From positions 864,001 to 928,000 of the forward strand of contig CBDCNQ010000005.1 in the NCBI GenBank assembly GCA_965219445.1: a stretch of DNA of 64,000 nt, read 5' to 3'. Under the pieces are notes generated by a model. That model had not been told where the DNA came from and did no database searches. It saw only the letters and a list, made by a program, of their open reading frames with translations. Made by a program: the position numbers and the translations under genes. Of this stretch, positions 4,725 to 12,992 are shown one piece after another. Position 1 is the stretch's first letter. Every line of letters begins with the position of its first letter. Origin of the DNA: Longimicrobiales bacterium (GTDB lineage Bacteria; Gemmatimonadota; Gemmatimonadetes; Longimicrobiales; Gaopeijiaceae).

Positions 4725-6227
4725 TCAGCCGTCCATCATACGAAGAGGCCCGACCATTTGGAGCAGGGACTCGATCATCCCTTCGTCACCGTAGATATCT
4801 GGCACTCCGGAGACGGGCAGACCGACGGAGCGCCCTGCATCCGCCGTCGTCGGTCCCACGCAAAAGATCTGCACGCCCTCTAGATCGACGCCGGACGAGG
4901 CCAGCGACTTCGCGGCCGAAGGGCTGTAAAGAAGTACTGCATCCACTCCTCTCCTAAACGCTTCCAACGCAGCGTCACTCGGCGGCTGGAGCAGTGTGTC
5001 ATACACGTGGAGGGTCTCCACTTCCAAACCCACCCGAGCCAATCCGTTGGAGACCTCGTCGACCGCGAGTGTTCCACATGGGAAGAGTACGCGCTGTCCG
5101 CTCTTCGCCTCAGCCGCGATCGCCTCCACAAGAGCCCGAGCCCGATATTCTTCCGGGATCAGGTCGGCGCGGATCCCCACCCCTTCGAAGCGAGCGGCCG
5201 TCTTGGGACCGACCACTGCGATCCGAGCCGCCCCGAAGAAGCGCGCATCGAGTCCCTGGCGTTCAAGTTGGCGGAGGAAGCCCTCGACCCCGTGGAACGA
5301 TGTGAACACGATCCAATCGTGGTCGGAGCGCGGCCCCGAGAGGTCGGCCTCGACATACTCAATGCGGATCAGTGGCGAATCGATCACCTCCGCTCCGAGC
5401 CCTCGAAGTCTGGAAATGACCTGCCTGCTCGCCGAGGACGGCCGGGTCACGACCACTCGGCGGCCGACCAGGGGCCCGAACCCCAGAGCCGGCGTATTGC
5501 CGTCGAGGCGGGGCAACCCGGCTCCCGGTCCCACGATCAGCACCATCGGAGCCAACAGACCCTCCTCCCGGACTAGGCCCGCAATGGTAGCAAGGGTCCC
5601 GCGGACCTGACGCTCCCCTGGGAGCGTCCCCTCCTGAACGACCGCAGCAGGAGTCGCACCGTCCCGACCGGCGGTCACCAGGCCCTGCGTTACCTCCTCC
5701 AATCGAGCGCCGCCCATGAGGACCACCGACGTGTCCATTTTTGCCATCGCCTCGTAGGGGAGCTCACGGTCCGGAAGGCCCTTTCCGACGCTGGGCGTCA
5801 CCACACTAACGGTACTCGCCTGACCACGGAGGGTGAGCGGGATGCCCGCCCGCGTCGGTACGCCGGTTGCACTGCTCACGCCAGGAACCACCTCACAAGG
5901 GACGCCGGCCAGATAGCACGCTTCGATCTCCTCCCATCCCCGGCCGTAGACGAAAGGATCACCGCCCTTCAGGCGAACCACCTCCTTCCCGGCCCTGGCC
6001 CGCTCGATCAGGACTTCGTGGATCCGGTCCTGGGGCACCGTGTGCTGACCGGGCGCCTTGAAGACGTCGATCAGCTCGGCATCGGGCCTGGTGAGGGTCA
6101 AGAGCTCAGCACCGGCGAGCCGATCATAAACGACCACATCGGCACGCCCGAGAAGCTCCCCGCCGCGAACCGTGATGAGCCCCGCGTCTCCGGGCCCAGC
6201 ACCGACCAGCCACACCCGACCGGTCAA
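4725..6227 (-). CDS. cobA: Fused uroporphyrinogen-III C-methyltransferase / uroporphyrinogen-III synthase (CobA-HemD)
   Basis: GRVWLVGAGPGD, VVRLKGGDPFVYGRG, then HemD-type VVVTRP...WIVFTS..GV. Likely start is TTG at 6227, overlapping the upstream TGA (TTGA). Confidence 0.9.
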   Translation of the reverse strand: MTGRVWLVGAGPGDAGLITVRGGELLGRADVVVYDRLAGAELLTLTRPDAELIDVFKAPGQHTVPQDRIHEVLIERARAGKEVVRLKGGDPFVYGRGWEEIEACYLAGVPCEVVPGVSSATGVPTRAGIPLTLRGQASTVSVVTPSVGKGLPDRELPYEAMAKMDTSVVLMGGARLEEVTQGLVTAGRDGATPAAVVQEGTLPGERQVRGTLATIAGLVREEGLLAPMVLIVGPGAGLPRLDGNTPALGFGPLVGRRVVVTRPSSASRQVISRLRGLGAEVIDSPLIRIEYVEADLSGPRSDHDWIVFTSFHGVEGFLRQLERQGLDARFFGAARIAVVGPKTAARFEGVGIRADLIPEEYRARALVEAIAAEAKSGQRVLFPCGTLAVDEVSNGLARVGLEVETLHVYDTLLQPPSDAALEAFRRGVDAVLLYSPSAAKSLASSGVDLEGVQIFCVGPTTADAGRSVGLPVSGVPDIYGDEGMIESLLQMVGPLRMMDG

Positions 6228-7135
6228 GGGACCGAGGGCGACCCCGCTCGCAGCGACAGAGACAAAGACACGGGCGAGCGTACCTGGCCTCCAGCCTCCC
6301 GGCCCGAGCGTGGGCGAGTGACAGAACCGAGCGACGATGTCCGGCGGGCGGGCGGGCGGCCGCGCGCATACCCTGCACGAGGGCTCGGGCTGAGCGAGGC
6401 ACGAATCCGCGACGTCGAATCGATCGCCTCGAGAGTGAGCGAGCCCAACTCCGGCCACTCCAATATCGGCGGAAGGACCTTTAGGGTCTCCGTCATGGTG
6501 TCGATCCCCGAGGAAGTTCGAGGGGCGGTCAAGGCACCGGCAAGATCCACGAGAACGTGCGGCCCACCCCCCATGAGCAAGGGAGCCGCCACGAGCGGGC
6601 GATCGCCGAGTGCGTCGGCGACGTCCGAAAGGTGAGGAGATCCATCGAGAAAGGCGGTGAGAATCTCCGTCTGTGGAAAGGTTAGAGCCAGTTCGTCCCG
6701 GAGCCGCCAAGCGGCGTCCGCACTCGAACGGACCCGTGGGGTGCCGTGTCCCACGAGAAGGACGGCCGGACTCAGTCCTCGTGCCGTCATGCCCTTCACC
6801 GCCTCGCCCACCCTGGTCGCCAAGATGTTGGAAAACGCTGGAAGGGTTCCGATCGGAGGGGCAATGATGAACGAACACGACGGATCCCCCTTCGCCAACT
6901 CCTCCGGCAAGCGCTGCCGGGCGTAGTATCCACCGCTGGCCATGATGGGCACTACCACAGGCCGCTTCCCTCGCAAACTCCGAGCTGCATCCTCGAAGCT
7001 CGGCGTGCCCTTCCAAAAAGCACACCCGAAGCGAACATCGGGTCGCCGCACCCGCAGGGTGTCCGTCAGCTCCAGGAGCGCCCGATTGGCCTCCGAGCCG
7101 TCGCCCGCGCCGTGCGCGGCGAGAATCACGGTCAT
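6224..7135 (-). CDS. Sirohydrochlorin chelatase, CbiX/SirB family (two-domain)
   Basis: Duplicated motifs ILAAHG... and LLVGHGT..., GGGPHV; siroheme operon context. Confidence 0.8.
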   Translation of the reverse strand: MTVILAAHGAGDGSEANRALLELTDTLRVRRPDVRFGCAFWKGTPSFEDAARSLRGKRPVVVPIMASGGYYARQRLPEELAKGDPSCSFIIAPPIGTLPAFSNILATRVGEAVKGMTARGLSPAVLLVGHGTPRVRSSADAAWRLRDELALTFPQTEILTAFLDGSPHLSDVADALGDRPLVAAPLLMGGGPHVLVDLAGALTAPRTSSGIDTMTETLKVLPPILEWPELGSLTLEAIDSTSRIRASLSPSPRAGYARGRPPARRTSSLGSVTRPRSGREAGGQVRSPVSLSLSLRAGSPSVP

Positions 7136-7148
7136 AGGCTTGATACGT

Positions 7149-7784
7149 CTACTCCGCCGTCGTGCGAGCTCCGCTGACGAGCTCCTCGAGACTCCACTTC
7201 CCCTCGCCGCTCACCCTCATGTGGAGCGTCAGCGGCCCCCGCGTGTGACCGACTCTTTCAAACTCCACGGGCACCCCACCGTAGACGTCCGCAAGAACCT
7301 CATGGAGTTCTCCAGTAACCACATCGAACGCGGCATCCGTCGCGGGCACGGCAAGACGGTCCGTAAAACGAAAGGCCATCTCACGCGTCGCGAACCGCAC
7401 GGGGTTTTCCCCGGCGGTATCGTGCTCCAGTGCGGCAGCGGCCTCGAGCACGCCCACGATCGCCTCCCGCAAACGCTCGGCCAGAGTCCCTGACCAGCCC
7501 CTCTTCAATTCGTATTCGAACCCGATTCGGCCACCCGCCTCATCGGTGCGCAGATGCCACCGGTGAGCGACCAAAAGCACCCCGGGGCCTGCCGGAACAT
7601 GCGTGTAATCGTGTACATCGATGAGCGTCCCCGGGAGTCGGTCCTCCTGTATCCAACTATGAAAGACTTCGATCATCCGGGCTCGGTCGAACGACTCCTG
7701 ATCCTCGACGAAGACCTTCACCCCCACCCTTTGCGGTTCTGAAACCACACGAGACTCGAGTTCAGCAGCCACCTGCGTGCTCAT
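7149..7784 (-). CDS. Hypothetical protein translationally coupled to the sulfite reductase
   Basis: 211 aa ORF with a 4-nt overlap with the upstream stop; FHSWIQ...LIDVHDYTHVPAGPGVLL motif. Confidence 0.75.
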   Translation of the reverse strand: MSTQVAAELESRVVSEPQRVGVKVFVEDQESFDRARMIEVFHSWIQEDRLPGTLIDVHDYTHVPAGPGVLLVAHRWHLRTDEAGGRIGFEYELKRGWSGTLAERLREAIVGVLEAAAALEHDTAGENPVRFATREMAFRFTDRLAVPATDAAFDVVTGELHEVLADVYGGVPVEFERVGHTRGPLTLHMRVSGEGKWSLEELVSGARTTAE

Positions 7785-10066
7785 ACCGACGCCGTCTCGA
7801 CGGTGCGGCCATGGTAAGAGTGGGCCGCCTCGATAAAGAGCTGGGCCTCTTCAATCCGCTTGCGAGCCCGCTCAGGCGTCGCTTCAACCCCATTACTGCC
7901 CTCGCCGTGCATGCGGAGCAAATAGTTTCCGAACTTTCCTCCCGCGTAAGGATCGTGGAAAAGGCCCGGGTCAAAGAGATGGGTCTTGAAAGCGGCAACT
8001 ACGTCTTCCGGATCTTCGCTGAGACCGGCCTCTTTCTCACGCGCGAGGGTCCTCGCGGCGATCAGCATCGCACGGTAGGCGATGTCGGCCGCGCCTGAGG
8101 AATCCCCCTGATCCAGCCGGTCCTGCGCCTCGAAGATCTCGCGCTCGCTGGCCTGGAGGCCAAACTCGACCGGCGAGACGACTTGGCCCGCACACTCACC
8201 GATGCCCATGTCGCCTAGCGTGAACTCCCTCGGGTCCCCCCAGTTCGAGTAGAAGCTACGGTCTTCCTCGTAGGTGGGAACCACGATCAGATCCTCGAGA
8301 AGGGTTCGGAGGCTGGCCTTGCCCACGCGGGTGACGAAGGCCTGGAAGCTCTCATCCCCTTGGCGCTCATCCACGTAATGCTGTGCGATCCTGTCCGTAG
8401 CGGCCGGGATGTTCCGGGCCGGCACCGCGACGATGGCCAATCCATAGGAACCCGCGTTCTCAGCCCACTGGCCTCCCAGCACGACCTGGAAGTGAGGCAC
8501 GTTGTACCCGTTGCGTTTCCGGCTCACGCCCCAGAAACCGATATCCGCCATGTGATGCTGCCCGCAGCTGTTGAAGCACCCACTGATCTTGATGCGCAGG
8601 CCGCGTATCACCTCATCCAATTCCTCACCGCGCTCATTGAAGCGGTCCATGAGTACGCGCCCCAAACCACGTGAGGAGGAGATGCCGAGTTTGCACGTGT
8701 CCGTTCCGGGGCAAGCCGTGATGTCCGAGACGGTTTCCGCCTGCGCGTCGGCGAGACCGAGATCCACCAAGGCCTCATACAGAGCGGGAAGGTCACTCTC
8801 ACGTACCCATCGGAGAGCCATATTCTGTTCAACCGTCATCCGGACCGCGTCCCCGGTAAACCGTCTAGCCACGTCGGCGAGGCCCCGCATCTGATCGGAC
8901 GTGATATCACCGAGAGGCAAGTATACCATTACGACCTTATACCCTGGCTGCCTCTGCGAAGCCACGTTGGCACCGAGCCACGCTTCCAACTCCGGGCCGG
9001 GCGTGAAGTCGTTCCCCTTCTCGATCTGCCAGAGCGGTCCATCGTGGCCCTTGTGAACGTCGTCGAGGTACGCCGTCCAACGGGGATCTTCGGGAAGCCC
9101 TGCGCGATCCTCCAGCACCAGACGACGAAACTCCTCGATGCCGAGCTTCGCGACGAGGAACTTCAAACGGGCGCGGGACCGAACATCCTTTTCTCCCAGA
9201 CGGGCAAAGACTCGAGAGATCGACTGGCACGTCGCAAGGAGCTCCTCTTCGGGTAGAAATTCATCGAACAACTCCGCCTGGTGCGGCACCGCCCCCAAGC
9301 CTCCGCCGACATAGAATTCGAAGCCGCGCTGCTCTTTTCCGTCCACCTCGCGGACCCGGGCAATCCCACCGAGGTCGTGCATCTTGACGAGTCCGCACGG
9401 CCGATCCGCACATCCCGAAAACGCAGGCTTGACCTTTCTCCCGAACTCCTGAGCATCCGGATGTCCGAGAAGGAAATCCGAGACGGCTGCGGCGTAGGGG
9501 CTGACGTCGAACGTCTGTGTCGTGCAGACCCCGGAGAGGTGGCAAGCGGTGACGTTTCTCACGACGTTGCCGCACGCCTCATGAGTCGTGATGCCCACGG
9601 CGCCCAGCCGCCGCATCAGATCCGGCGTCTCTTCAAGGTGAACGAAGTGCAGCTGGATGTCCTGCCGCGTCGTCACATGTAGGATCGTGTCCGCGTACTC
9701 CTCGGCGACCTCCGCCAACACGTCCATTTGATCGGCGGTAATTGCACCGAACGGATTCTTGATGCGCACCATGCCTGGGGCGTCCCACTGCGTTCCCGGA
9801 CCCTTGGTGAGGTCCGGGTTCGGGAATACCAACTCCCTGGTGTTCAATCCATCGTGACGTTGGCCGTTGTCGTACCGCTGACCGTAGACGCCGCGGCGCA
9901 GGCGCATCTCCGCGAATACCTCATCGGTGAGCTTTCCTGCCCGCTTCTGCTCGATAAGTCCCTCGAAGGAGTCGATCTCCCGCGAAAGCTTGTCGCCAAG
10001 GAGCGATCCGAGCTTGGCCTTCCATTGCCGTGGCTCCGAAGCCTCACCTTTACCATTGGTAGTCAT
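7781..10066 (-). CDS. Nitrite/sulfite reductase hemoprotein (Sir/CysI-type) with HEPN-like C-terminal domain
   Basis: RLRRGVYGQR, HVTTRQDIQLH, and ACPGTDTCKLG / KISGCFNSCGQH siroheme-[4Fe-4S] ligands; downstream of cysH. Confidence 0.9.
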   Translation of the reverse strand: MTTNGKGEASEPRQWKAKLGSLLGDKLSREIDSFEGLIEQKRAGKLTDEVFAEMRLRRGVYGQRYDNGQRHDGLNTRELVFPNPDLTKGPGTQWDAPGMVRIKNPFGAITADQMDVLAEVAEEYADTILHVTTRQDIQLHFVHLEETPDLMRRLGAVGITTHEACGNVVRNVTACHLSGVCTTQTFDVSPYAAAVSDFLLGHPDAQEFGRKVKPAFSGCADRPCGLVKMHDLGGIARVREVDGKEQRGFEFYVGGGLGAVPHQAELFDEFLPEEELLATCQSISRVFARLGEKDVRSRARLKFLVAKLGIEEFRRLVLEDRAGLPEDPRWTAYLDDVHKGHDGPLWQIEKGNDFTPGPELEAWLGANVASQRQPGYKVVMVYLPLGDITSDQMRGLADVARRFTGDAVRMTVEQNMALRWVRESDLPALYEALVDLGLADAQAETVSDITACPGTDTCKLGISSSRGLGRVLMDRFNERGEELDEVIRGLRIKISGCFNSCGQHHMADIGFWGVSRKRNGYNVPHFQVVLGGQWAENAGSYGLAIVAVPARNIPAATDRIAQHYVDERQGDESFQAFVTRVGKASLRTLLEDLIVVPTYEEDRSFYSNWGDPREFTLGDMGIGECAGQVVSPVEFGLQASEREIFEAQDRLDQGDSSGAADIAYRAMLIAARTLAREKEAGLSEDPEDVVAAFKTHLFDPGLFHDPYAGGKFGNYLLRMHGEGSNGVEATPERARKRIEEAQLFIEAAHSYHGRTVETASV

Positions 10067-10146: not shown

Positions 10147-10845
10147 TTACGTCAAGCCATGTATGCCGCATTCCAGACGTTCGCTCCCCCTCCACCGGCC
10201 AGCCCGCTCATGCTCTTCCTCGGAAACGGGCGTGGTCAGAGGTTGGTCGCCAAGGCTCAGGTAGCCCATGTCGTGGAGCGGGTTATACGGCACGTCGTTT
10301 GCGCGGAGAAACAACCAAACCTCGTCGGCCGACCAAGAGGCCACAGGATTGACCTTGATGCGATCCCCAATCTGCACATGGGCGAGATCGGCTCGGCTCG
10401 CCGACTGGTCGCGGCGGCGCCCGGTGATCCATCCTTCCACACCATCGAGGGCCCGTTTCATGGGCTCGACCCGCGTGAGTCGATGAAAGAGCTCCAGGTC
10501 ACGTTGCCACAACCGCTCCCCGTACTTCTCCTCGAACGCCGCGCGCGACTCAGCGGGCCGATAGACGCGTACGTCGAGGCCATAGTGTGCCTTCACACGC
10601 TCGGCATGCTCGAGTGTCTCCGGGAAGTGGTACAGCGTATCCACGAATGCGACGGGCACCTGCGGGGCGATCTCGGCGAGGAGATGAAGATTCACCATCC
10701 CCGTGGAGCCGAACGAAGACGCCACAATCAGCCGCCCGGGCGTTACGGTTTCGACGGCCCAACGAATGGCGTCCGAAGGATGTGCTCCCTCGAGCCAGTC
10801 GTTGATCCGTCTCACGTCTTCGGTGCCGGCTGTCGCCGCAGTCAT
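10147..10845 (-). CDS. cysH: Phospho-adenylyl-sulfate (PAPS/APS) reductase
   Basis: SSFG, DTLYHFPET, WITGRRRDQS, RAGRW and C-terminal ECGIH. Start at ATG 10845 lies downstream of the attenuator terminator. Confidence 0.92.
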   Translation of the reverse strand: MTAATAGTEDVRRINDWLEGAHPSDAIRWAVETVTPGRLIVASSFGSTGMVNLHLLAEIAPQVPVAFVDTLYHFPETLEHAERVKAHYGLDVRVYRPAESRAAFEEKYGERLWQRDLELFHRLTRVEPMKRALDGVEGWITGRRRDQSASRADLAHVQIGDRIKVNPVASWSADEVWLFLRANDVPYNPLHDMGYLSLGDQPLTTPVSEEEHERAGRWRGSERLECGIHGLT

Positions 10846-10897
10846 CTGCTGCCTTCCGATTTCAAATTCAACATGCTTTTCTTCCACCGTGCGACCC

Positions 10898-10930
10898 AAA
10901 AAAAAGCCGCAACCCTCGAGGGGCCGCGGC
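10898..10930 (-). terminator. Intrinsic (attenuator) terminator in the cysH leader
   Basis: Minus strand GCCGCGGCCC-CTCGA-GGGTTGCGGC followed by U8, upstream of cysH in the same orientation. Confidence 0.85.
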
Positions 10931-10954
10931 GTTCGCATGAGTCTTCGTTTCTTG

Positions 10955-11041
10955 TCAACGACTCGTCGGAACGTGCCCCTCTCTAGGCGTGACCGTACAA
11001 CAACAACAACAGCAACAACACATGGCCATCCGTGGAGTCAT
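10955..11041 (-). CDS. Polycysteine leader peptide 2 (MTPRMAMCCCCCCCCTVTPREGHVPTSR)
   Basis: Eight consecutive TGT/TGC codons, a GAGGTG Shine-Dalgarno-like sequence upstream, and a terminator before cysH. Confidence 0.85.
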   Translation of the reverse strand: MTPRMAMCCCCCCCCTVTPREGHVPTSR

Positions 11042-11126
11042 CTCGAACACCTCGAGAAATTCATGGAACCGCACGCTTCGGATACCTCTTCCTAAGTTTC
11101 CGTTCCCGGTCCTACCCGGTTCGAAC

Positions 11127-11160
11127 AAAAAAGGCCCTCGGGAGAACCCGGTGGCCTTTT
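11127..11160 (-). terminator. Second intrinsic terminator after leader peptide 1 (A/U tracts on both sides)
   Basis: Minus strand AAAAGGCCACCGGG-TTCT-CCCGAGGGCCTTTTTT. Confidence 0.75.
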
Positions 11161-11181
11161 GATCCTGGAAACGATACCCAC

Positions 11182-11209
11182 AAAAAAGCCACCGAATGTC
11201 TCCGGTGGC
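11182..11209 (-). terminator. First intrinsic terminator after leader peptide 1
   Basis: Minus strand GCCACCGGA-GACA-TTCGGTGGC-TTTTTT. Confidence 0.8.
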
Positions 11210-11237
11210 GTTTCAGGGAATCTTGTCGTGTGTATGC

Positions 11238-11309
11238 CTATACGACGTCTCCCCGACACCCCACCGGGCTCGGACAAGAACATCGGCAACAACACCTCTT
11301 GAGCATCAT
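11238..11309 (-). CDS. Cysteine-rich leader peptide 1 (MMLKRCCCRCSCPSPVGCRGDVV)
   Basis: 23-codon ORF with 6 Cys and AAGGA upstream. Its CCCGGTGG is complementary to the 5' arms of both downstream terminators. Confidence 0.78.
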   Translation of the reverse strand: MMLKRCCCRCSCPSPVGCRGDVV

Positions 11310-11573
11310 GACATGCGTCCTTTTACAACACATCCGCTTTGTCACGCATCTTTCTAAAGAACAACGCTAATCGCCTGAAGCGCCCTGTCAAGGGAGGAGC
11401 CAACAAGGGCTTCCCTGGCGACTCGTGCACGTTCCACCCATAATGGCGCCACGGCAACGCCGATGGCGCACCGCCGCGGAGGTAAGACACGATGTTCTTG
11501 GGGGTGTGTTGACGATCTTCGGCCCGAATTTCGTAGGCGGCTATCGAGTCCCGCACGGGGGGATCCGGTAGCC

Positions 11574-12992
11574 ATGCCCGACGGGGCCCTGACATCAGGA
11601 AAACCGTTCGACCGCTCGATCGTCGAGGGCCCTATCCCCGGTGTGGTCTGGAAGCTCGCCTGGCCGACCATGCTTCAGAACGTTCTCGGCGGGCTCCAGG
11701 GCATCGTGGACCACGCCATGGTCGGACACTTCGTTGGCTACACCGGGAACGCCGCCATTGGGGTCGCCTGGCAAATCTTCCTAGTCGTAATGGTGTTCAT
11801 CAGCTCCCTCTTCACCGGCATGGGCGTTCTGGTCGCTCGGTTTGTGGGGGCCCACGAGCCGGACAAGGTGAACCGGACCGTATATCAGGCGTTCTTCACT
11901 GCCGCGGTCATGTCAATCGGGATCCTGGCTCCACTCGGGTATTTCCTCTCGCCGTGGCTTCTCGGACTCGTGAACGCCGCCCCCGACGTACAAGCGGAGG
12001 CCCTCCTGTATCTCCGCATCATGTTCGTGTTCAGCTTCGGCATGATCGTCTACTTCATGGTCGGAGGTGCACTCCGATCCGCAGGGGACGCACGCACGCC
12101 GCTCCGTCTCGGCATCATGCTCACTACGCTCAACATCACCCTGAACGTCATTCTCATTCCGGGGTTGGGACCGATCCCGGCGTTCGGCACCACCGGAGCG
12201 GCCATGGGCACCGTGATCGCGGGGGGCCTGATGGCGGCCATCTCCATCTACCTATTGTTCGCCGGAAAATGGGTCGTGGGCTTTCGCCGCGGCATGGACT
12301 GGAGGCCGGACTTCGGGATCATTCGTGAGCTGTTCCGTTTCGGGATTCCAACAGGTCTGCAAGGTGTGGCGATGAACGTCGGAGGGGTCATGCTCCTCGC
12401 GTACATCGGATCGCTACCCCAGAGCGGTGAGGCCCAGGCTGCTTATGTGATCAGTTATACCCAACTCTTCTCGATGATCACCTGGACGTCGGCGGGCCTG
12501 CTGGGTGCCACTGCGGCGATCTCCGGACAGAACCTGGGCGCCGGACGACCGGAGCGCACGATCCACGCGGTGCACGTGGCCTCTTGGCTCGGGCTGGGGG
12601 TTGCCTCGACTGTCGGCGTTCTCTTCCTCGCGATACCGCGCGTTCTCCTCGGGTTCTTCGGTGTGGAAGATCCGCTCGTCGCTCAAATGGCCGTCCGTCT
12701 GCTCTCGATCTTGAGCGCCTCCGGCCTGTTCATCACCGTCGCGTTGGCCTACACCGGAGGGCTTCAGGGAACAGGAGACACGCGGAGTCCATTTTACATA
12801 TCACTCGTCTCGCAGCTCATCATCCCGATCGGCATCTGTGCGGTCCTTCAGGCGGCCGGGATACTCCAGGCGACGTACATCTGGCTTGCCATCCTCATGG
12901 GGCACATGACTCGATGCGGGCTCACCGTTGTCCGTTTCCGGCAGGGAAAGTGGCGTGAAATCAAGGTGAGCATCGAGCCGGCCCGGTCGTGA
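11574..12992 (+). CDS. MATE family efflux transporter
   Basis: KLAWPTML, VDHAMVGH, LRSAGDARTPL, GQNLGAG, LQGTGDTRSP; multiple TM segments. Start inferred. Confidence 0.9.
   Translation: MPDGALTSGKPFDRSIVEGPIPGVVWKLAWPTMLQNVLGGLQGIVDHAMVGHFVGYTGNAAIGVAWQIFLVVMVFISSLFTGMGVLVARFVGAHEPDKVNRTVYQAFFTAAVMSIGILAPLGYFLSPWLLGLVNAAPDVQAEALLYLRIMFVFSFGMIVYFMVGGALRSAGDARTPLRLGIMLTTLNITLNVILIPGLGPIPAFGTTGAAMGTVIAGGLMAAISIYLLFAGKWVVGFRRGMDWRPDFGIIRELFRFGIPTGLQGVAMNVGGVMLLAYIGSLPQSGEAQAAYVISYTQLFSMITWTSAGLLGATAAISGQNLGAGRPERTIHAVHVASWLGLGVASTVGVLFLAIPRVLLGFFGVEDPLVAQMAVRLLSILSASGLFITVALAYTGGLQGTGDTRSPFYISLVSQLIIPIGICAVLQAAGILQATYIWLAILMGHMTRCGLTVVRFRQGKWREIKVSIEPARS

Follow-up and report, generated by a model that had tools for sequence, protein, structure and literature searches.

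How the sulfur-reduction genes of a Longimicrobiales bacterium might be controlled is the question raised by the DNA upstream of cysH in the window – the whole 64,000-nt stretch analysed here – where two short ORFs rich in Cys codons and three terminator-like hairpins follow one another on the minus strand. A first-pass annotation, made from the letters alone, had read these elements as two cysteine leader-peptide attenuators in tandem, and all of its leader and terminator coordinates hold on that strand (Table 1). Conservation, switch geometry and gene context support the core of that reading, a single promoter followed by two serial attenuators with Cys-codon leaders, and we consider it likely that a single transcript carries both units and that each attenuates transcription in response to Cys.

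Table 1. Features of the leader region and of the operon behind it, in minus-strand order (window positions).
Feature	Position	Strand	Details	Support
Promoter-like site	11364–11391	minus	TTGACA-16 nt-TAGCGT; predicted start near 11357	Conservation
Leader 1	11238–11309	minus	23 codons, MMLKRCCCRCSCPSPVGCRGDVV, stop; CCCRCSC at 11294–11274; AGGA-type SD upstream	Sequence
Antiterminator arm A1	11261–11267	minus	CCGGTGG; complementary to T1 5' arm	7 pairs intact in 26/26 rows
T1	11182–11209	minus	Intrinsic-terminator-like hairpin; stem 11209–11188, U6 to 11182	−17.0 kcal/mol; 99% of cells paired
T2	11127–11160	minus	Terminator-like hairpin, U6, without a leader of its own; 5' arm repeats that of T1	−23.0 kcal/mol; in 26/26 rows
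Leader 2	10955–11041	minus	28 codons, MTPRMAM-C8-TVTPREGHVPTSR, stop; eight Cys codons at 11020–10997	Sequence
Antiterminator arm A2	10969–10981	minus	GAGGGGC + CGTTC; complementary to T3 5' arm and preceding bases	99.2% of cells paired
T3	10898–10930	minus	Intrinsic-terminator-like hairpin; stem 10930–10906, U8 to 10898	Terminator scan
Mini-ORF	10842–10874	minus	10 codons (MLNLKSEGSR, stop); own SD; stop overlaps cysH start (ATGA)	Alignment
cysH	10147–10845	minus	PAPS-reductase family; ATG at 10845	PRK02090, 239.9 bits over cut-off 154; PF01507
sir-like gene	7781–10066	minus	Siroheme sulfite/nitrite reductase (NIR_SIR)	PF01077, PF03460; under NCBIfam equivalog cut-offs
211-aa protein	7149–7784	minus	Overlaps sir stop	No Pfam/NCBIfam match
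cbiX	6224–7135	minus	CbiX-type chelatase	PF01903
cobA/hemD	4725–6230	minus	CobA-HemD fusion; start approximate	TIGR01469 above cut-off; PF00590, PF02602

The genes 3' of the leader region follow one another on the minus strand in the order cysH-sir-hyp-cbiX-cobA/hemD. This matches the content that the first-pass annotation had given to a 'sulfate-assimilation operon', a name that fits in part: sulfate activation is encoded elsewhere, by a sat-cysC fusion on another contig (C4), and because it is absent from the cysH-sir operon we describe the latter as covering PAPS to sulfide plus siroheme. The closest named records for CysH, at 86–90% identity, belong to Gemmatimonadota MAGs (Longimicrobiales or UBA6960). 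Every genus relative listed retains the 211-aa protein in its operon, and we regard this protein as a candidate partner of the operon's sulfite reductase. Immediately before cysH, the length and overlap of the mini-ORF are constant in 24/26 sequences with a cysH start while its peptide varies; from its position in the sequence, the mini-ORF likely couples translation to cysH.

Both leaders show the parts by which leader attenuators are recognized – an SD and start, clustered end-product codons, and a GC-rich hairpin with a U tract – to which computation adds a mutually exclusive antiterminator. SD-like motifs and starts are conserved for both (ATG or GTG in leader 1), and alignment of relatives, the check proposed along with the tandem reading, finds the Cys runs in frame in all sequences that retain them and the U-tract hairpins conserved. 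Leader 1 has an SD and begins about 48 nt past the predicted transcript start; leader 2 is internal. Since Tyr replaces the distal Cys18 of leader 1 in several relatives and two have a frameshifted tail, the kept part of this leader is the Cys cluster and not the peptide tail. The number of Cys codons in leader 2 varies from about 4 to 8 as frame and stop stay constant, and a possible earlier start, the in-frame GTG at 11074 with the SD GAGGT at 11088–11084, has an in-frame equivalent in 15/16 rows (GTG, once ATG).

Such ORFs are rare in the 4.56-Mb genome. Counting both strands, we found only two runs of at least six Cys codons: one is that of leader 2, the other a simple (TGC)10 repeat. Cys-rich short ORFs number 79 across the genome, and a terminator follows three: leaders 1 and 2, and one that sits within long ORFs. 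An origin of leader 2 by duplication of leader 1 was rejected by eye, as the leader 2 tail resembles those of single leaders in other Gemmatimonadota (L055–L057) and not that of leader 1.

Upstream of leader 1, both hexamers of the promoter-like site are 100% identical in the 15 tandem sequences, whose flanks are 60–78% conserved, and the site recurs throughout the alignments. A strict sigma70 scan (−10 box of at least 4/6) returned 0 sites, missing this one at 11391–11364. The first-pass annotation had noted that a separate promoter between the units would leave leader 1 an orphan; neither the scan nor inspection of the alignments by eye revealed a −35/−10 pair of sigma70 type between T2 and leader 2. 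The spacer before leader 2 contains a conserved block (87%) that reads as the SD and in-frame GTG at 11074. A TTGACA at the leader 2 stop (10958–10953) was rejected as a promoter, having no −10 box behind it. On the plus strand, a CATAAT-like hexamer ends a conserved block at window positions 11415–11460; this block probably serves as promoter for the MATE transporter gene that runs divergently (11573–12992).

To place these elements in the genus, we rely on a DNA search that matched 9/12 genus genomes including the source (CysH itself was found in 6/11 genus-mates); the three genomes with no match are 73–85% complete. Each of the 9 genus genomes with the locus has leader 1, T1 and T2 behind the promoter-like site. 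Leader 2 and T3 (unit 2) follow directly in four (G000, G001, G007 and G008), come after a 3.2-kb insertion in G006 and are deleted in four. A metagenome set comprises 19 loci retrieved by the leader 1 pattern, in which leader 1 is therefore present by construction. The alignment holds 30 sequences, 27 of them distinct, and 26 were used after a second copy from one genome was dropped. Among these are 16 intact tandems, 1 interrupted tandem and 9 sequences without unit 2, so that leader 2 and T3 are kept in 17/26. Functional segments are 90–100% conserved in the 15 tandem sequences, versus 57–76% for the spacers. One contig, identical to the window over 10600–11602, may come from the source sample and was not counted as independent.

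The arrangement of each unit suggests a switch: each Cys run directly precedes an arm complementary to the 5' arm of its own terminator. We computed the effect of a ribosome that hides 13 nt from its A site (results hold for footprints of 10–16 nt), taking as our measure the amount by which the best terminator-free fold exceeds, in energy, the best fold containing the terminator, and as our null 200 shuffles of the tail. For T1 this difference was −1.6 kcal/mol with the ribosome stalled at CCC versus +14.3 at the stop, and 2/200 shuffles were as low. For T3 it was +2.0 to +5.6 kcal/mol stalled versus +15.5 at the stop, with 13 and 15/200 shuffles as low. The last Cys of the leader 1 cluster gave no switch at the 13-nt footprint (+10.0); the A1 helix forms while the ribosome occupies any of the first four Cys codons, but not from the fifth onward. 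With the ribosome on the Cys codons the antiterminator is present, and 0–2 codons later it is gone, in 26/26 rows for unit 1 and 15/16 for unit 2 – a pattern partly built into the ribosome model, so that the evidence lies in where the Cys runs are placed.

Consistent with these pairings, the predicted helices are paired in 97–99% of cells versus 39–56% for slid partners; for the A2 helix the slid partners reach 39–52%, and it has no compensatory changes. Covariation above shuffles was found in none of the helices; the rows are too closely related in sequence, and the 19 metagenome loci among them were chosen by the leader 1 pattern. A terminator scan discriminates weakly when taken alone (4 found versus 1.8 ± 1.3 in shuffles). 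A cruder pairing test gave leader 2 a score that 26/30 shuffles equalled and did not pick up leader 1 either; among leaders across the phylum, 14/48 stood at no more than 3/30 shuffles (10% level), with a mean of 7.6 versus 6.4 paired bases. Equilibrium folding of 7 rows left the terminator dominant even with a stalled ribosome. We used constrained fold comparisons because equilibrium folds of the full leader were mixed for T2 and dependent on where the RNA was cut. Rfam covariance models for T-boxes and riboswitches gave no match above the gathering score (best 18–19 bits, E 1.6–2.9).

The remaining hairpin, T2, bears on the earlier proposal that three terminators gate the operon. All three are present; T2 appears to be wired to T1 and not to act as a separate gate. 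The 3' arm of T1 and its U tract can pair with the 5' arm of T2 over about 13 bp, a complementarity that arises because the T2 5' arm repeats that of T1, and that could be an inheritance of duplication. With A1:T1 fixed, the energy difference for T2 was −0.2 kcal/mol, versus +16.8 with T1 formed, and 1/200 shuffles matched this. The 5' arm of T2 is 90% conserved versus 70% for its 3' arm. Base A152 of T2 is unpaired in the T2 stem in 23/25 rows and paired in the relay helix, that is, T1 3' strand with T2 5' arm, in 24/25; changes at A152 keep the relay pairing, the sole exception being a misaligned row. The T2 stem has one compensatory A-U to G-C change, in 4/25 rows, and the alignment holds none in the relay helix.

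At equilibrium the relay beats T2 in 13/26 sequences, and unconstrained longer folds often keep T2. Relay and T2 are thus roughly iso-energetic, and the relay therefore depends on folding order; the relay helix could form before the 3' arm of T2 is made, which would favour the relay. Overall, we think it fairly probable that T2 is slaved to T1 through the relay strand. T2 was also considered as a plus-strand terminator and rejected: its A run becomes A/G mixes in relatives, and the MATE gene points away.

We propose that the 0.5-kb leader comprises two attenuators of the trp/his type in series, both reading charged Cys-tRNA; here translation of the leaders, termination and the cysteine response are what we infer from the anatomy, conservation, complementarity, gene identities and computed energies. 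When cysteine is plentiful, a ribosome would run through leader 1 and cover A1, so that T1 forms and most transcripts end. T1 would then also hold the relay strand, allowing T2 to form and catch read-through, and the remaining transcripts would meet leader 2 and T3, which should behave in the same way. When cysteine is short, a ribosome would wait at CCC and A1 would pair with the T1 5' arm; the freed T1 3' arm and U tract would pair with the T2 5' arm; a second ribosome would wait on C8, letting A2 pair with the T3 5' arm; and the operon would be transcribed. The mini-ORF would then couple translation to cysH. Control at the PAPS-reduction step would economize on PAPS and siroheme synthesis as long as cysteine is at hand. 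Three stops in series would give a low leak, and a steeper response from stacking – the first-pass annotation had suggested a sharpened or graded one – is possible on this model. The full scheme, in which two ribosomes reading one signal drive a three-stop cascade, the stall on leader 1 toppling T1 and then T2 and the stall on leader 2 opening T3, with lower leak and a steeper response than any single attenuator, is one we advance tentatively, at somewhat less than even confidence.

The alternative closest to this scheme keeps both leaders as real attenuators and makes T2 a constitutive, leaky terminator, a decayed duplicate of T1 that cuts output by a fixed fraction. A T2 5' arm that copies T1's gets its complementarity to the T1 3' arm for free, relay and T2 lie near 0 kcal/mol with the relay favourable in 13/26 sequences, and the relay helix lacks a compensatory change. 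Against this, a hairpin as strong as T2 (−23 kcal/mol), found in 26/26 rows, would shut off most expression of the operon if it were never switched; its 5' arm is frozen (90%) while the 3' partner drifts (70%) and carries mismatches, and the relay energy recurs in 1/200 shuffles. We judge an unswitched T2 unlikely. Lower still we place a promoter of its own for unit 2, which would put the units on separate transcripts and make leader 1 a remnant of a former intervening gene block. Such an origin by deletion is made plausible by a locus of one distant genome (L107) whose two leaders lie 2.2 kb apart with PALP-enzyme and JAB genes between them, one genus genome tolerates the 3.2-kb insertion between T2 and leader 2, and the spacer before leader 2 contains the 87% conserved block. 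That block, however, reads as an SD with an in-frame start, and no −35/−10 pair of sigma70 type was seen between the units. Moreover, nine sequences without unit 2 place promoter, leader 1, T1 and T2 directly on cysH, from which we conclude that unit 1 controls the cysH operon. Separate transcripts are accordingly an improbable reading.

Two further explanations were considered. The Cys-rich peptides might act themselves, through metal or redox binding or nascent-chain arrest, the hairpins being gene ends or being switched by peptide-dependent stalling. Leader 1 is indeed almost invariant at the peptide level, but the invariant part coincides with the pairing arms, the tail frameshift and Cys18-to-Tyr are tolerated, the Cys number of leader 2 ranges from about 4 to 8, and the features common to leaders across the phylum are limited to a Cys cluster plus a terminator 50–110 nt past the stop; we therefore give active peptides little chance. 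It is scarcely credible that the TGT run is a microsatellite and that the ORFs and hairpins are chance intergenic features: although a poly-TGY stretch is a triplet repeat, readable in another frame as poly-Leu, and the number of terminators by itself is close to chance, the leaders keep their start, frame and stop and the arms are conserved, the pattern is specific to sulfur genes across the phylum, and it is almost absent elsewhere in the genome.

Relatives indicate how far the second unit is needed. Losses of unit 2 have six different end points; T3 is removed or broken in all 9, leaving no uncontrolled terminator, and several retain remnants – the leader 2 start, the Cys run or the T3 3' arm. 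A cysH tree was built from 20 in-group rows, without four short rows and the two genomes that lack cysH; on it the tandem label changes 5 times in all bootstrap trees, of which the starred branches force only 2. Judged from these sequences, the most economical account is that the tandem is ancestral and that unit 2 has been lost repeatedly. Deletion of unit 2 in 9/26 sequences makes stacking look dispensable, and the repeated loss means that one unit is enough for many relatives.

Several genus genomes depart from the common layout in other ways. The G006 insertion between T2 and leader 2 (L069, G006:C2:2891670-2894890) is 3.2 kb long with an 8-bp target duplication and inverted ends, and is presumably IS1595-like. 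In the same genome (L025, L069) cysH is missing and leader 2-T3 stands directly on sir; in G007 (L019:2059 onward) cysH is missing except for its first codons, which continue in frame into sir. The query used detected no CysH in the genomes of G006 and G007. One genome carries two promoter-leader 1-T1-T2-leader 2-T3-cysH cassettes about 26 kb apart (L048 and L054), with no sir behind them and, by eye, apparent transposase ORFs nearby, which suggests that the cassette was mobilized in one piece.

Beyond the genus, cysH occurs in 60/401 Gemmatimonadota genomes, and we surveyed 56 loci, leaving out the source genome, G005, one unpublished genome and one contig-edge locus. At 36/56 loci the cysH strand has a Cys leader followed by a terminator; the opposite strand has one at 2 loci, both before TauE genes. 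A looser rule adds 3 loci, but it also gives 8 for the opposite strand. No Cys leader with terminator was found in the five genomes belonging to the other class. Six further named loci, which may overlap the 56-locus set, have one leader each. Direct stacking was seen only in the genus-level group of the source. The sole locus with two leaders on one strand is L107:4535-6890 (G163), where the second leader begins at the stop of the JAB-domain gene, before cysH; this layout suggests how a stack may arise by losing intervening genes.

The survey turned up other leaders. At L094:5963-6110 and L116:5947-6140, minus strand, a Cys leader and terminator precede TauE-family genes divergent from cysC-cysH, and L094 has one Cys leader on each strand. 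In family f4 (L071–L100), Met codons are interspersed with the Cys codons of many leaders (for example CCCM, CMCMC), a hint that Gemmatimonadaceae-like genomes might sense Met and Cys jointly. Outside the window, the source genome encodes a His leader (G000:C5:821987-822300, plus strand; MNTSTRHHRHHHHHP...) with a promoter-like site and a terminator before hisG; this reads as a His attenuator of classical type in Gemmatimonadota, and from it the source organism appears to use leader-peptide attenuation. A Trp-leader scan gave 20 matches among 1268 ORFs and no useful signal.

Among known systems, the hisL leader works as a domino of alternative helices built from six segments, A to F. The his attenuator is described in PMC11805395, which covers the 'E-F' part of the segment scheme, and in 10.1101/2022.04.13.488163; as there described, hisL and trpL resemble our locus in placing a short ORF with a run of end-product codons, and an antiterminator opposed to an intrinsic terminator, before a biosynthetic operon. 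The locus differs from hisL in sensing Cys and in having two serial leaders and three terminators, where hisL has one terminator ending its domino. Closer in signal is uORFC-8-2 before cysS in Rhodobacterales, a predicted Cys-codon uORF with an intrinsic terminator for which ribosome-mediated attenuation is proposed (PMC8632094); as presented there it has two Cys codons in one unstacked unit, before a synthetase gene and in Alphaproteobacteria. Polycysteine sORFs of mycobacteria and other actinobacteria likewise sense cysteine for sulfur genes (10.1101/834739; PMC1262725), and for Ms5788A this sensing is demonstrated experimentally (10.1101/834739). As described in 10.1101/834739, they are leaderless single units that act on translation initiation by hiding the SD, with no conserved terminators; PMC1262725 describes actinobacterial Cys leaders without terminators, and the mycobacterial translational attenuator is treated in 10.1101/834739 and PMC13236596. 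Our leaders, unlike the mycobacterial sORFs, have SDs, do not sit at the transcript 5' end and come with three conserved U-tract hairpins.

Serial control is also known. Tandem T-boxes exist, with serial terminators in one leader. Like the locus, tandem riboswitches and T-boxes multiply control in this way; unlike it, they bind the ligand or tRNA through the RNA itself, and no Rfam family matched at the locus. The metE SAM/B12 riboswitch pair is cited as a tandem example in PMC3641672, whose own subject, Salmonella mgtCBR, resembles our locus in that two short ORFs in one leader control read-through. The two mgtCBR signals differ, being ATP and proline, and the same paper contrasts mgtCBR with leaders having two intrinsic terminators. 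Two predicted terminators are described for lmrC (PMC8546547) and two-leader control for ermB (PMC8274638). The main text of a terminator survey (PMC2965389) includes no cysteine case, and the introduction of 10.1101/834739 notes that cysteine was long missing among the amino acids sensed by leader-peptide transcription attenuation. In the literature searched – main texts, mostly open-access – we found neither a stacked Cys attenuator nor one in Gemmatimonadota.

To these known designs the locus would add two features: stacking for the same signal, and a terminator switched by a strand of another terminator. The device is 0.5 kb long, would need only ribosome and polymerase, and comes in natural one-unit and two-unit versions that can be compared; the unit 2 deletions at six end points form a natural allelic series for what stacking buys. 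In the class Gemmatimonadetes, which is nearly uncultured, sulfur-reduction operons may commonly be controlled by terminator-based Cys attenuation.
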